A stretch of DNA of 8,216 nucleotides from a virus. Taxonomy: Duplodnaviria; Heunggongvirae; Uroviricota; Caudoviricetes. Under the pieces are notes generated by a model. That model was not told the origin of the DNA. It saw only the letters and a program-made list of their open reading frames with translations, and did no database searches. Location: the IMG/VR virus record IMGVR_UViG_2698536618_000025; one strand, given 5' to 3'. Of this stretch, positions 2,641 through 5,016 are shown one piece after another. Position 1 is the first letter of the stretch; each line of letters begins with the position of its first letter. The position numbers were made by a program, and so were the translations under genes.

Positions 2641-4040
2641 TACAGCGGGCGCACGTCATCACCGTCAATAACGATTACGCCATCATTTTCCAGCTTGTAC
2701 AGCCAGCGCCGGAAGTGCTTCATCTCATACCCCAGCTTTTTCATATCGTCGCGGAGAAGGGCGATAGTGCACGCCTCCCCGTGTGCTGTTCGTGTTCTGA
2801 TGCACTGCCATAGCGCGGCGTGATTCTCCGTCTTGTTCCCTGCCTCCTCGATGCGCTCCAGTTCAACGGGAGGGCGCGGCTTATCCACCACCACCAGCGA
2901 CGTGATTAACTCCCCGTCAGCGTCGGTAAAAAGCTCCACCACGCGTAAGTCATATGCTGCTTCTTTGAGTTCCTCCGCGTCCTTCATTTTGGTACATGAG
3001 ATAACCAGCGCTTCGCTGCCTGCGTCCTCCCTGCGTATCCGGTATTCGGCGTCCAGTGATGCACGAAATGCACTGGAACCACGCGCCCCCTTTGTTTCAT
3101 CCTTGCCGGAATGGTGAACCACCAGCACCGTTGCCCCTGTGCGCCGTTTCAGTTCGTCACACCCACGGATAAACGCCCCCATATCACGGGAATCATTTTC
3201 ATCATTGCCGCCAAAGCAGCGCGCCAGCGTATCCAGAATAATCATTCGAACCGGTTTACCCGTTTCCCGTTCCACCTGACGGGCAGCGATAACCATTTCC
3301 TCAACATCAAGCGGGGCAGCCGGAAAGATGGGACGGTTTACCAGATACAGATTTTTCACCTGCTCACCGTGCACAACCTCCCAGGCTTTTACACGACGCG
3401 GAACGCCGATACCGCCTTCACCAACCACATAGAGAACAGCGCCATGCGCCACCCTGCGGCCTCCCCACTGGCGGCCCGTGGAAACGTGACACGCCCACGA
3501 ACCCGCAAGGAACGATTTATATGAACCGCTCGCCCCGTATATGCTGCACAGCGATACCGCCGGAATAATCCCCTTAACCACGTAATCAAGTTGTGTGTCG
3601 TATCCGGCAGATCCCACGCTCATTGGTAGCGTGGTTTTTCGCTGGTGGTGTTTTTCTTCCCCTGGCTTTTTCCCCCGCTCCCGTTCCAGATATTCGCGCC
3701 AGTTCTCCCGCTTCTGGCTGTGCATCCCTTCGGGGTAATAATTCGCATCAGTTACACCCGCCGCCGCCAGCTTGTGCGCAATGGCATTAATATTTGATGG
3801 CCTGATGTGGCCTGCCTTGTACAGCCGGACACAATAGCGCCCCTCGTCGATGATTCTCAGGTCTGCCAGTTCATCCAGTTGATCATCAGCCAGCACAACG
3901 GGAGGCACATTATCGCCAGCCAGTCGCCCGTCCTGTTCCTGCCACTGTTTCGCATGTGCCCAGGCATCACTACCCGCAAAAATAATGACTTCGGTCATCT
4001 TGTCGTAAGGCTGTTTTTTTAAGTTCGGTGCGCTTTTCAT
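2640..4040 (-). CDS. Replication protein, RecA-fold ATPase/helicase (RepA / AAA_25-like), 466 aa
   Basis: P-loop-like GASGSYKS, Walker B-like MIILDT, TVLVVHHSGKD sensor-like motif; ATG at 4040 overlaps upstream stop (ATGA coupling), AGGGG 6 nt upstream; iterons immediately 3' of the gene. Confidence 0.85.
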   Translation of the reverse strand: MKSAPNLKKQPYDKMTEVIIFAGSDAWAHAKQWQEQDGRLAGDNVPPVVLADDQLDELADLRIIDEGRYCVRLYKAGHIRPSNINAIAHKLAAAGVTDANYYPEGMHSQKRENWREYLERERGKKPGEEKHHQRKTTLPMSVGSAGYDTQLDYVVKGIIPAVSLCSIYGASGSYKSFLAGSWACHVSTGRQWGGRRVAHGAVLYVVGEGGIGVPRRVKAWEVVHGEQVKNLYLVNRPIFPAAPLDVEEMVIAARQVERETGKPVRMIILDTLARCFGGNDENDSRDMGAFIRGCDELKRRTGATVLVVHHSGKDETKGARGSSAFRASLDAEYRIRREDAGSEALVISCTKMKDAEELKEAAYDLRVVELFTDADGELITSLVVVDKPRPPVELERIEEAGNKTENHAALWQCIRTRTAHGEACTIALLRDDMKKLGYEMKHFRRWLYKLENDGVIVIDGDDVRPL

Positions 4041-4336
4041 TTCTTGCCCCTGAATCCGTTAATCATGTTTTTCATCTTCTGAATATTGGTGCGTGCTTTC
4101 TCCCTGCTGGTGGGCTTGCTTCGTTGCGCTGCCTGCACCAGCGTAAAATCACGTTCGAACTGATAAACAGGCATCACGCAATCATATTCGTAGCCTTCAC
4201 GGCGGTAAGTTACGCGCCGTTCCTCCACGCCCTTAATCATTACCGTGCCGCCGTACTTATCGCGGTAAATATCCCCGCGCATGAATTTAGTGCGAGTTTT
4301 GCCACTGGCAGTTAAGCCAGGATATTTAAGTTTCAT
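4037..4336 (-). CDS. Hypothetical protein (99 aa), translationally coupled to the replication gene
   Basis: ATG at 4336; stop overlaps the rep start by 4 nt (ATGA). Basic protein, no family recognised. Confidence 0.55.
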   Translation of the reverse strand: MKLKYPGLTASGKTRTKFMRGDIYRDKYGGTVMIKGVEERRVTYRREGYEYDCVMPVYQFERDFTLVQAAQRSKPTSREKARTNIQKMKNMINGFRGKK

Positions 4337-4341
4337 TATTT

Positions 4342-4572
4342 TTATTCTCCGGTGTGCTGTTCTTTATATCTGTCGTGCAATAGATCTATTTCTTGCAGTT
4401 CCATTATTACAGGCTCAAGAATCGTTATTAATGCCGTGGCAATTCTTGATTTTTGTTTGTCGCGTTCATTGTCGCCAAGTGTTTCAAGCCATATGCGAAA
4501 TATTTCCAACATATTTTCACTGTGAGAAAGTGCAAGAAATGCGCGGTCTATTGTTTCAAAGATAAATATCAC
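4342..4572 (-). CDS. Hypothetical protein (76 aa)
   Basis: GTG start at 4572, 5 nt after the upstream stop; weak GGGGA SD; alternative ATG at Met21. Compact spacing with neighbours supports operon membership. Confidence 0.45.
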   Translation of the reverse strand: MIFIFETIDRAFLALSHSENMLEIFRIWLETLGDNERDKQKSRIATALITILEPVIMELQEIDLLHDRYKEQHTGE

Positions 4573-4577
4573 GCATA

Positions 4578-4799
4578 TTAATCCCCGTCCGTTGTTTTTC
4601 TTAAAACAGCTTCTGTCACGAAATCAGCATAGTTAGCGGCAATATCAAGAATATTTAGCCCTGTACCTCTGTGCTCATCAGTGCAAAGAAAGAAAAAAGC
4701 CACCCGCATAATTTCAGATATTGACGAAAGCGCATCAGCCGCATCATCAGGAACGCCGGAAAATTCTTGTTTCAGGGAATTAAAACGATCATCACGCAT
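4578..4799 (-). CDS. Hypothetical acidic protein (73 aa)
   Basis: ATG at 4799 with GGAGG 6 nt upstream (track start at 4850 is an unsupported upstream extension); overlaps the preceding gene by 8 nt. Confidence 0.5.
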   Translation of the reverse strand: MRDDRFNSLKQEFSGVPDDAADALSSISEIMRVAFFFLCTDEHRGTGLNILDIAANYADFVTEAVLRKTTDGD

Positions 4800-5016
4800 A
4801 ACCCCCCTCCCCATTTTCACAATCAGCAACAAGAATATTTTTAGCGTCATTCAGCGACCGCGTGGCGGTGTATCGGATACATTCCAGGGCGAACAATGTG
4901 TATTCTTCCCGTTCTTCCTTTTGTGCAAGCCCTGCTGTGCATTCAATATCAATAAGCGCATGCATCAGCGTAGTGAGCGCGGCGGCTGCTGCGTCCGGTG
5001 TGGTTTTATTGCACAT
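4792..5016 (-). CDS. Hypothetical protein (74 aa)
   Basis: ATG at 5016 with AGGAGG 6 nt upstream (the track start at 5058 is a GTG extension); overlaps the stop of the upstream ORF by 11 nt. Confidence 0.5.
   Translation of the reverse strand: MCNKTTPDAAAAALTTLMHALIDIECTAGLAQKEEREEYTLFALECIRYTATRSLNDAKNILVADCENGEGGYA

Follow-up and report, generated by a model that had tools for sequence, protein, structure and literature searches.

Four packed small genes, one of the RgdR (DUF4222) family, lead into the replicase gene of a probable Escherichia-type phage-inducible chromosomal island

The window analysed here, the complete stretch of 8,216 nucleotides, carries on its minus strand, in this order, int, an 83-aa ORF, an alpA-like gene, an isrK-like RNA, a C4/CI-like RNA, an icd-like gene, four small ORFs (ORF1 to ORF4) and rep, followed by further small ORFs, terS and a capsid-like gene. 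The features between the immunity RNAs and the replicase are the following.

5437..5361, minus strand: isrK-type small RNA, a relative of P4 seqA (Rfam RF01394, 66 bits, gathering score 50)
5339..5252, minus strand: C4/P4-CI-type antisense immunity RNA (Rfam RF01695, 77.6 bits, gathering score 45)
5247..5206, minus strand: leader with two predicted C4 target boxes, box 1 UUGGCGU at 5247..5241 and box 2 ACACUGAGGAGG at 5217..5206
5197..5006, minus strand: icd-like (Kil-like) gene, 63 aa (NCBIfam phage_ICD_like, 59.7 bits, cut-off 25)
5016..4792, minus strand: ORF1, 74 aa, ATG start with AGGAGG 7 nt upstream
4812..4802, minus strand: interrupted poly-G tract, G4 A G6, at the ORF1/ORF2 junction, doubling as the Shine-Dalgarno sequence (SD) of ORF2
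4799..4578, minus strand: ORF2, 73 aa, ATG start with a G-rich SD
4572..4342, minus strand: ORF3, 76 aa, GTG start
4336..4037, minus strand: ORF4, 99 aa, ATG start with GGAG upstream
4040..2640, minus strand: rep, replicase, 466 aa, RepA-type AAA_25 helicase (Pfam AAA_25, E = 2.6e-43, and phrog_2850)

The end of the icd-like gene overlaps ORF1 by 11 nt, ORF1 overlaps ORF2 by 8 nt, gaps of 5 nt separate ORF2 from ORF3 and ORF3 from ORF4, and ORF4 runs into rep through an ATGA overlap. When re-derived on the minus strand, the coordinates, sizes and junctions of the four packed frames were all as the original prediction had given them, and the coding strand of the 980-nt ORF1-4 block contains no terminator-like site. 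The placement of the block as a set of tightly coupled small genes of a phage satellite, just upstream of its replicase, was likewise borne out by the island context. An integrase with three Pfam domains lies at one end, and the alpA-type regulator follows on the same strand. This 68-aa HTH protein scores below the cut-off of the Phage_AlpA model (17.6 bits versus 21) and is 93-100% identical to the regulator in the same position of related islands. Further along come an AAA_25 replicase, terS and a capsid-family ORF, and the window ends inside the late zone. The relatives are found at tRNA-Pro and other attachment sites of phage-inducible chromosomal islands (PICIs), with SSB, PerC and capsid genes nearby. 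It is therefore probable that ORF1-4 form the middle part of the early, immunity-to-replication operon of an Escherichia-type PICI.

All four ORFs are coding and conserved. Their packing goes beyond chance because each of them matches a PHROG family (E-values 1e-15 to 2e-42), 1183 complete E. coli genomes out of 5426 carry the 980-nt block, annotated as CDSs, the block is free of internal terminators, and pairwise dN/dS is 0.52 for ORF1, 0.36 for ORF2, 0.48 for ORF3 and 0.27 for ORF4. The frames are kept across hundreds of genomes with dN/dS below 1. The frames are short (73-99 aa) and ORF1-3 lack a Pfam match, as would be the case if some or all of them were chance openings in non-coding or regulatory DNA. 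However, the retention of the frames, PHROG E-values reaching as low as 1e-42 and the confidently folded model of ORF4 make such an origin extremely improbable. The cassette evolves fairly fast and is a mosaic in which several allelic classes occur.

ORF4 is a DUF4222 protein of the RgdR family, which has already been studied. Its residues 17-68 match Pfam PF13973 (DUF4222) with 87.2 bits (cut-off 27, E = 5.1e-25), so that the earlier statement that none of the four proteins belongs to a nameable family does not hold for ORF4. Over all 99 residues, ORF4 is 80% identical to a DUF4222 protein of E. coli O157:H7 strain 2159, the gene of which adjoins a RepA helicase gene in an island at pepT/roxA. 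We infer that this island is OI-51, the home of RgdR. RgdR is ECs1581 of O157:H7 O-island 51, or CP-933C (Flockhart et al. 2012, PMC3378721). It binds DNA non-specifically, changes how LEE1 and the motility genes are transcribed, activates both LEE1 and type III secretion, represses motility and alters Congo-red binding; deletion of OI-51 lowered the colonisation of sheep (PMC3378721). The region responsible for activation of type III secretion was mapped between z1841 and z1842, the site of ecs1581, and cloned ecs1581 alone complemented the defect (PMC3378721); we infer from this complementation that the homologues of ORF1-3 are not needed for it. The family is present in all E. coli PICIs analysed in an earlier study (PMC6092414).

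The AlphaFold2 model of ORF4 (pI 10.2) consists of an SH3-like barrel, with a core pLDDT of about 90, and a basic C-terminal helix at residues 77-96. Its fold neighbours are KOW, Tudor, PWWP and SH3 barrels and DUF1653, all of them weak and generic matches (E of at least 0.013 versus the PDB). ORF4 has R20, G21, D22 and K35, which include the residues linked to activity in RgdR (R20 of the RGD motif and K35; PMC3378721). Core columns of the conserved DUF4222 core (residues 20-68) are invariant in 111 sequences. Family members differ at position 20 of the RGD motif (R, C, N, H, K or P), K35 is conserved, and G21 and D22 are invariant. As G21 and D22 stand immediately before the first barrel strand of the model, the RGD motif looks structural rather than integrin-like.

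ORF1-3 are catalogued genes without an assigned function. They are limited to Escherichia/Shigella islands and gave no match in 50,697 phage records, in which ORF4 had a single weak match; the ORF1-4 module as such does not occur in bona fide phage genomes. ORF1-3 lack Pfam matches and PDB relatives, and they are not discussed in PMC6092414 or PMC10111431. The helical models obtained among them are of low confidence (pLDDT 61) and have no fold neighbours. ORF3 is acidic (pI 4.8), probably helical, and matches phrog_2196 (E = 1.6e-36); an exhaustive search of 1.84 billion representative proteins returned only 10 matches. Clustering places it in 81 of 85 loci, as three allelic classes and almost always directly before ORF4. 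Its start is the weakest of the four. In most relatives the protein has 77 residues and begins at an ATG 4 nt upstream (MRDIYHE... or MRDIYLE...). In the window, a 1-nt T insertion throws this ATG (4576..4574) out of frame, and the resulting frame meets a stop 6 codons on. The conserved ORF3 protein, the N-terminus of which is altered in this allele, can be read from the GTG at 4572 alone.

The junction of ORF1 and ORF2 is variable. Both proteins are acidic. ORF1 (pI 4.5), for which a long helical hairpin is predicted in a low-confidence model, matches phrog_5146 as well as positions 1-75 of the 154-aa phrog_2512, and the helical ORF2 (pI 4.4) matches phrog_24341 (E = 1.6e-42) as well as positions 78-146 of phrog_2512. 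Their homologues occur in E. coli and Shigella only, and both genes are missing from many otherwise similar islands. In the relatives the poly-G tract ranges from G7 to G11/12, where lengths of 7 and 10 fuse ORF1 with ORF2 and the other lengths split them. An in-frame fusion was found in 21 of 81 unique instances (about 26%) and a split in the remaining 60. The fused versions have 148-155 residues, and a 154-aa one is annotated in O157:H7. Since phrog_2512 spans both ORFs, and since these fusions and the O157:H7 protein exist, ORF1 and ORF2 are most likely the halves of one acidic helical protein or of a two-subunit complex. A tolerated fusion is nevertheless not proof of an interaction. Because the tract length is variable, the 8-nt overlap seen in the window is one of several states.

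The existence of full-length versions, those of O157:H7 included, a PHROG model of the fused form and the error-prone homopolymer at the junction could also mean that a single gene is broken in the window and that the split represents decay into a pseudogene. This is quite improbable, however, as the split form is the majority, ORF2 keeps its own ATG and G-rich SD in every tract state, both halves are under purifying selection and, at frequencies of about 26%, 48% and 26%, all three frame states seem to be tolerated. The tract resembles the contingency loci of Neisseria and Haemophilus (poly-G/poly-C): a G7-G11 tract lies at a coding junction, changes in its length shift the frame, and the length differs between otherwise identical sequences. 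Of 75 contexts whose 400-nt flanks are identical, 6 have two or more tract lengths, and over 5.6 kb the window differs from one relative (L005) by a mismatch at 5597, one G in the tract and nothing else. In individual cases such length differences may be due to sequencing error. Furthermore, contingency loci switch a gene on or off, whereas the tract in the window toggles two genes between fused and split, with the ORF2 start always kept. We consider it unlikely that the tract is a functional contingency switch of the satellite, in which slipped-strand changes between G7 and G11 would alternate a fusion of ~150 aa with two proteins of ~75 aa that differ in activity. If this were true, the two states could differ, for example, towards helper phages or hosts.

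The region upstream of ORF1 suggests how the block may be controlled. The isrK-type RNA ends at its 3' side in a terminator-like hairpin (5383..5365). In the C4-type RNA, two unpaired segments are complementary to the two boxes of the leader just downstream: box 1 pairs at 7 of 7 positions, and box 2 pairs with loop 2 at 12 of 12 if G-U pairs are counted. Box 2 covers the SD of the icd-like gene, the ATG of which follows 8 nt later at 5197 and opens the first translated gene of the coupled chain; the gene is the C-terminal part of a mechanical 219-aa Ash-family ORF (5665..5006, Pfam Phage_ASH). The boxes change in step with the C4 RNA in four other loci (L016, L004, L013 and the second L053 copy, the last three read by eye from printed sequences), which together with the window makes five specificity variants. 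C4/isrK were found in 6 of 15 related loci scanned, and such hits in Gram-negative PICIs have been noted before (PMC10111431).

By analogy, the overlaps and 5-nt gaps would act as a chain of translational coupling. In the quiescent island, the C4-type RNA would pair with both leader boxes, one of them over the icd SD; the transcript would then be untranslated and prematurely terminated, and ORF1-4 and the replicase would be off, as in P1 c4-icd-ant and P4 CI/seqA. Once AlpA, the activator, is induced by a helper phage, translation would proceed from icd across ORF1-4 and on into rep. The ORF1-4 chain is probably gated by the C4-type RNA at the icd ribosome-binding site. After induction, ORF1-3 would most likely bind other proteins, and ORF4 would most likely be a DNA-binding co-factor made in stoichiometric amounts with the replicase.

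The overlap of the ORF4 stop with the rep start is kept in 82 of 85 loci and spans three replicase types (D5_N/DUF5906, AAA_25 and DUF927). In addition, Klebsiella phage Kp4866-6 has a DUF4222-like ORF of 59 aa overlapping the start of an initiator gene (DnaD-like/HTH_36), although the match is a weak one, at 33% identity and E = 2e-4, in an unverified record. Taken with the basic barrel of SH3-like fold, which many nucleic-acid binders have, with the non-specific DNA binding of RgdR (PMC3378721) and with the lowest dN/dS of the block, which makes ORF4 its most conserved gene, these observations would suit a replication accessory: ORF4, possibly together with ORF3, may be an origin-remodelling or helicase-assisting DNA-binding protein, the effects of which on virulence genes are side effects. 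We regard this as a real possibility, short of an expectation. The first ~122 residues of the replicases are common to all three types at 60-70% identity, and because of this likeness the constant ORF4-rep junction may be just a common recombination block; moreover, no replication phenotype has been reported for rgdR, and the PDB fold matches are weak and generic. The four genes could instead be host-directed cargo ("morons") that benefits the carrier bacterium, with RgdR as a global surface and virulence regulator and ORF1-3 as modulators. The published effects on LEE1, type III secretion, motility, Congo-red binding and, through the OI-51 deletion, sheep colonisation (PMC3378721) agree with it, as do the PerC-like regulators carried in the same islands. 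It is nonetheless doubtful, as the genes lie inside an apparently RNA-repressed, AlpA-activated operon and outside the usual accessory slots (PMC6092414), the RgdR family is common in strains that lack the LEE (PMC3378721, and also our genome survey), and ecs1581 alone restored type III secretion (PMC3378721), with the ORF1-3 homologues apparently dispensable. More speculatively, RgdR might be a free KOW-like domain that disturbs NusG/Rho-dependent silencing of foreign DNA. This would account for its pleiotropic effects as well as for its replicase coupling.

In P4, epsilon sits between the immunity region and the replicase, and ORF1-4 occupy the same position. One or more of them could hence be helper-directed factors, positional analogues of epsilon that act in the induction or derepression of a helper prophage or interfere with helper reproduction. 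The positional analogy is reasonable, but it is still only an analogy. The restriction of the genes to satellites, with ORF1-3 absent from the phage records, fits this proposal, and so does the acidic helical make-up typical of protein binders; the mosaic cassette, its allelic classes and the dN/dS of around 0.5 for ORF1 and ORF3 fit adaptation to different partners, although mosaicism and fast evolution are compatible with helper interaction without being evidence for it. Nothing was found that points to the derepression, hijacking or anti-helper roles put forward in the original prediction: there is no likeness to P4 epsilon in a comparison with 50,697 phage records, a set that may lack P4, no match of defence models to ORF1-4, and no sequence or fold likeness to any known derepressor, anti-repressor or interference protein. 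Rpp, to our knowledge the only interference function known in E. coli PICIs, is encoded downstream of rep. It acts on helper packaging (PMC6739421), and induction of Gram-negative PICIs proceeds via helper-dependent activation of alpA, not via derepression (PMC6092414). As ORF1 and ORF2 are also dispensed with by many otherwise similar islands, a helper-directed role appears rather unlikely.

In summary, the finding is mostly ordinary, since ORF4 belongs to a studied family and ORF1-3 were already catalogued; it is a refined map of a known system and no new kind of system. E. coli PICIs are widespread; roughly one in five complete E. coli genomes has the ORF1-4 block. The islands carry virulence and defence genes from strain to strain. 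Their genes between immunity region and replicase are unstudied except for the side effect of RgdR on type III secretion. The map offers several testable ideas: RgdR may have a native job linked to the replicase, ORF1 and ORF2 may be one unit that flips between fused and split at a homopolymer, ORF3 may be the constant partner gene of RgdR, and a C4-type RNA probably gates the entire chain.

The immunity end of the operon is reminiscent of immI of P1 and P7, where a C4-family RNA also lies directly upstream of an icd-like gene, two segments of the RNA complement two boxes in the leader, the icd SD being covered by one of them, and the downstream genes overlap icd. Biere, Citron and Schuster reportedly showed in 1992 that the P1 arrangement results in transcriptional control via translational repression. 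However, immI has an antirepressor gene (ant) after icd, whereas the window has ORF1-4 and the replicase, and repression of the window operon would follow by extension from P1 and P4. On the P4 map, too, small ORFs lead into the primase/replicase. The left operon of P4 (CI RNA/seqA, eta/kil, epsilon, orf151, alpha) similarly has the immunity RNA inside an Ash/Bro-type ORF, followed by a Kil/Icd-like product (PMC10111431). However, ORF1-4 have no detectable similarity to P4 epsilon, in a comparison with a 50,697-record phage set that may not include P4, and PICIs are a lineage separate from P4 (PMC6092414).

ORF4 itself closely resembles RgdR (ECs1581): both are DUF4222 proteins of 99 residues with RGD at residues 20-22 and K35, and both genes lie directly upstream of a replicase gene and overlap it. 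The O157:H7 protein used in our comparison carries A10 and R45, whereas ECs1581 as published has D10 and H45 (PMC3378721), and the former may be a lineage variant. The published phenotypes of RgdR concern host virulence genes and not the life cycle of the island. In its layout, the window resembles the PICIs of the EcCICFT073/EcCIEDL933 type (Fillol-Salom et al. 2018, PMC6092414; Mageeney et al. 2023, PMC10111431), in which int, alpA, the Bro/immunity, replication and late zones follow in the same order, rgdR precedes pri-rep and C4/isrK occur in some islands. It differs from them in having a RepA/AAA_25 replicase in place of the D5_N/DUF5906 primase type and its own combination of ORF1, ORF2 and ORF3 alleles.

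The window, an Escherichia-type phage-inducible chromosomal island (PICI), encodes a tyrosine integrase, an Ash/Icd-like ORF, a RepA/AAA_25 replicase, terS, a capsid-family ORF and an alpA-like HTH protein, whose Pfam match is weak and which shares 93-100% identity with the regulator that related islands carry at this position. Related loci are located at tRNA-Pro, beside pntB and beside pepT/roxA, with SSB, PerC and capsid genes downstream; a scan of species-representative genomes returned only two loci, one in Shigella flexneri and one in E. albertii. The genes of the window lie on the minus strand, with a divergent Arc/HicB-like (YlcI/YnfO family) gene on the plus strand at 5620..5892. 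A strong terminator-like hairpin (5595-5631, plus strand) is present at the 5' end of this divergent gene. The four small ORFs and the replicase gene are arranged as follows.

Four small ORFs and the replicase gene of the window
5016..4792, minus strand: ORF1, 74 aa
4799..4578, minus strand: ORF2, 73 aa
4572..4342, minus strand: ORF3, 76 aa, GTG start
4336..4037, minus strand: ORF4, 99 aa
4040..2640, minus strand: replicase (rep), 466 aa, after ORF4

The preceding icd-like ORF overlaps ORF1 by 11 nt, ORF1 and ORF2 overlap by 8 nt, gaps of 5 nt separate ORF2 from ORF3 and ORF3 from ORF4, and ORF4 is joined to rep by an ATGA overlap. Re-measuring the junctions reproduced the coordinates, sizes, overlaps, gaps and ATGA coupling of the original prediction. 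Its statement that every start is supported by a Shine-Dalgarno (SD) sequence or by coupling held for the recognisable SDs of ORF1, ORF2 and ORF4, whereas the GTG start of ORF3 is weaker. No terminator-like site was found on the coding strand within the four-ORF block.

We conclude that the four ORFs are genuine genes, because all of them match PHROG families (E-values of 1.4e-15, 1.6e-42, 1.6e-36 and 1.1e-31 for ORF1 to ORF4), the 980-nt block is present, almost always on the chromosome, in 1183 of 5426 complete E. coli genomes, where the ORFs are annotated as CDSs, and their frames are kept. The pairwise Nei-Gojobori dN/dS values calculated from 80 IMG/VR loci and the E. coli loci (0.52, 0.36, 0.48 and 0.27 for ORF1 to ORF4, and 0.31 for the neighbouring icd-like gene) point the same way, as they indicate moderate purifying selection that is typical for small genes of mobile elements.

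Searches with ORF1-3 gave nothing in Pfam, NCBIfam or PADLOC, only families of unknown function in PHROGs, and no match in 50,697 phage records, among which ORF4 had one weak match. These three ORFs are, as had been proposed from the sequence, uncharacterised genes specific to satellites. Profile-profile comparison detected no relationship among them, and they are not discussed in the papers on E. coli PICIs that we consulted. None of the four ORFs matches a defence-system model or has a relative among solved structures in PDB sequence and profile searches. Matches to kinesin, exportin, Ku80 and interferon in the PDB were at chance level and were dismissed.

For ORF4, the assertion that no family could be named proved wrong. 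This ORF encodes an RgdR/DUF4222 protein (score 87.2 bits, cut-off 27). Along its full 99 residues it shares 80% identity with the DUF4222 protein encoded ahead of a RepA helicase gene in the E. coli O157:H7 island beside pepT/roxA. By its position and content this island appears to be O-island 51/CP-933C, which encodes RgdR, with some doubt arising from mismatches at residues 10 and 45. RgdR is a 99-aa protein that activates type III secretion as well as the LEE1 promoter, represses motility, alters Congo-red binding and shows no sequence specificity in its DNA binding (PMC3378721). According to Fillol-Salom et al. (PMC6092414), every E. coli PICI analysed encodes it. ORF4 of the window carries R20-G21-D22 and K35. 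G21 and D22 are invariant in 111 homologues, and position 20 is occupied by R, C, N, H, K or P. In alignments of ORF4 homologues, the R of the RGD motif from which RgdR takes its name is therefore not conserved.

In its AlphaFold2 model (mean pLDDT 77.6, about 90 for residues 21-68), ORF4 is predicted to form a five-stranded SH3-like barrel with a short helix ahead of the last strand, followed by a basic helix of residues 77-96; G21 and D22 would directly precede the first strand of the barrel. A Foldseek search of the PDB with this model returned KOW domains of Spt5/NusG, PWWP, Tudor and SH3 barrels, none of them significant (best E = 0.013), and a search of viral models returned DUF1653 and uncharacterised small phage proteins (best E = 2.5e-4). 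Membership in the KOW family was rejected, as there is no Pfam KOW match and the fold matches are weak and generic for SH3-like barrels. The predicted fold is compatible with a small adaptor that binds nucleic acids or proteins.

The stop codon of ORF4 and the start codon of the replicase overlap as ATGA in 82 of 85 loci, and the replicases belong to three types.

Replicase types in the related loci
D5_N/DUF5906 primase, 582-604 aa: 46 loci
RepA/AAA_25, 465-471 aa: 31 loci
DUF927, about 710 aa: 3 loci

At its N-terminus, the replicase has ~122 residues (window 3675-4040, minus strand) without a Pfam match, and these are 60-70% identical across the three types in 80 related loci. As this N-terminus is common to all of them, the recombination break between the types lies within rep, and the ORF4-rep junction may be constant because it recombines as a block, and not because function requires it. 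Bearing on a link between DUF4222 and replication is Klebsiella phage Kp4866-6 (OK490421.1), in which an unannotated 59-aa DUF4222-like ORF (positions 3980-4159 of this locus, L170 in our set) is found between cII and a DnaD-like/HTH_36 initiator gene. The ORF overlaps the start of the initiator gene by 11 nt, and a PerC-like gene comes next, so that the order DUF4222, initiator, PerC is the same in this phage and in the islands. Kp4866-6 would provide independent support for the link, to the extent that a weak match in an unverified record can do so.

An ORF3-family gene immediately precedes ORF4 in 81 of 85 loci, as determined by clustering. Its product is acidic (pI 4.8), and as an exhaustive search of 1.84 billion representative proteins gave only 10 matches, there is no wider family to lend it a function. 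In most relatives, ORF3 begins at an ATG 4 nt 5' of the GTG used in the window and encodes 77 aa (MRDIYHE... or MRDIYLE...). In the window, a 1-nt T insertion puts this ATG (4576..4574) out of frame, with a stop after 6 codons (MRDIYL), and hence the conserved ORF3 can be read only from the GTG at 4572. There are three allelic classes of ORF3, which are only about 25-35% identical to each other and all end in H-T/A-G/I-G-E, the site of the ORF4 SD. The cassette upstream co-varies with the class: class A is accompanied by ORF1 and ORF2, class B stands alone or after a single ORF1-like gene without ORF2, and class C is accompanied by genes of 61 aa and 63 aa. Some islands contain ORF3 and ORF4 only, and a tblastn search of the 70 loci with enough upstream sequence detected ORF1-like genes in 60, ORF2 in 50 and ORF3 in 65. 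These observations identify ORF3-ORF4-rep as a conserved core and ORF1/ORF2 as an optional cassette.

ORF1 and ORF2 are both acidic (pI 4.5 and 4.4), and their homologues were found only in E. coli and Shigella. Both are covered by a single 154-aa family, phrog_2512, its first half by ORF1 and its second half by ORF2. Their junction is a poly-G tract immediately 5' of the ORF2 ATG, which is G4AG6 in the window (4812..4802, minus strand) and ranges from G7 to G11/12 in the relatives.

Poly-G tract and state of ORF1 and ORF2 (81 unique instances, IMG/VR and fetched loci)
G7: 17 instances, fused
G8: 31 instances, plus 5 interrupted 8-mers, split
G9: 18 instances, split
G10: 4 instances, fused
G11: 2 instances, plus 1 interrupted, split
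G4AG7: 3 instances, split

Lengths of 7 and 10 join the two frames (...DCENGG(G)VMRDD...) in 21 of the 81 instances (26%), and a fused 154-aa protein is annotated in O157:H7. The same fused allele is found in four independent assemblies, so that sequencing error alone does not account for the fusion. More than one tract length occurs in 6 of 75 contexts with identical 400-nt flanks. The IMG/VR contig L005 is almost identical to the window, from which it differs over 5.6 kb by only one substitution and one G in the tract. In every tract state ORF2 retains its own ATG and a G-rich SD. The frequencies of the three frame states (~26%, 48% and 26%) make it appear that all of them are tolerated. We conclude that ORF1 and ORF2 probably act as a single unit, whether as two domains of one protein or as two subunits of a complex, for which their tolerance of fusion is suggestive. 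The AlphaFold2 model of the fused protein, built on P0122, a natural fusion without the last 21 residues, is helical with a mean pLDDT of 61, and its Foldseek search returned only generic helical bundles (E > 1). This low-confidence model is informative for little except a probable helical character.

Twelve loci (L002, positions 6200-6583 of the reverse complement, and 11 others) have an additional gene between ORF1 and ORF2, annotated by RefSeq as 121 aa and with a longest ORF of 127 aa. These islands have a different sequence upstream of ORF2 and no long G tract. A further pair of neighbouring genes in this zone, of 61-75 aa and 63 aa, forms one 139-aa ORF in one locus (L012, 534-953) and are separate in another (L014, 2758-3176), and hence fusion or splitting of neighbours recurs in this zone.

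Two RNAs and two leader boxes accompany the icd-like gene, the ATG of which is at 5197.

RNAs and leader boxes
5437..5361, minus strand: isrK-type RNA (Rfam, 66 bits, above the gathering score)
5339..5252, minus strand: C4 antisense RNA (Rfam, 77.6 bits, above the gathering score)
5247..5241, minus strand: leader box 1, UUGGCGU, complementary to the C4-like RNA
5217..5206, minus strand: leader box 2, ACACUGAGGAGG, which includes the SD of the icd-like gene

Two unpaired segments of the C4-like RNA are complementary to the two boxes, which lie just downstream of it (5247-5206, minus strand). Four further sequence variants, those of L016, L004 and L013 and of the second RNA copy of L053, are accompanied by matching changes in both boxes; the three CUGG-stem variants were compared by eye, not by script. 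This covariation supports pairing of C4 with the leader, and the compensating changes suggest distinct immunity specificities among the islands. RNAduplex was uninformative, since long imperfect duplexes elsewhere in the operon scored equally, and was replaced by a direct loop-to-box comparison across variants. C4 is carried by only 6 of 15 related loci scanned. Locus L053 contains two different C4 copies and a match to the c4-a1b1 target model (3333-3420, 3694-3743, 3810-3898), which suggests that its immunity region is duplicated or composite.

Taken together, the block combines alleles of a known and widespread PICI module in a new way. The original interpretation was partly right, in that the genes are satellite-specific and ORF1-3 are uncharacterised. 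It missed the RgdR/DUF4222 membership of ORF4, and the anti-helper role that it offered is neither favoured nor disfavoured by the evidence. What is new is modest: ORF1 and ORF2 are fused or split at the poly-G tract, ORF3-ORF4-rep is a constant core, DUF4222 is found with replication initiators of several kinds, and C4 has covarying target boxes at the ribosome-binding site of icd.

Joined by overlaps or minimal gaps, icd, ORF1, ORF2, ORF3, ORF4 and rep would form a chain of translational coupling. Upon helper induction, AlpA-driven transcription (PMC6092414) would lead to joint expression of the whole chain. A block at the icd ribosome-binding site would silence every gene through the replicase. 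The complementarity of C4 to its boxes and the geometry of the coupling can be read directly from the sequence, and repression is proposed by analogy with known systems. The arrangement in the window matches c4-icd-ant of phage P1, for which Biere, Citron and Schuster are said to have found in 1992 that C4 prevents translation of icd, as a result of which the transcript terminates prematurely, ahead of the gene that overlaps icd downstream. It also matches the control by CI and seqA within eta/kil of P4 (PMC10111431); relatives of CI and seqA are detected by the C4 and isrK models in some Gram-negative PICIs (Mageeney et al., PMC10111431). Both RNAs lie within a mechanical 219-aa Ash/Icd ORF (5665..5006, minus strand), which for that reason was at first taken as spurious. 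The eta/kil precedent of P4 makes it plausible that this is an Ash-type ORF with embedded RNAs.
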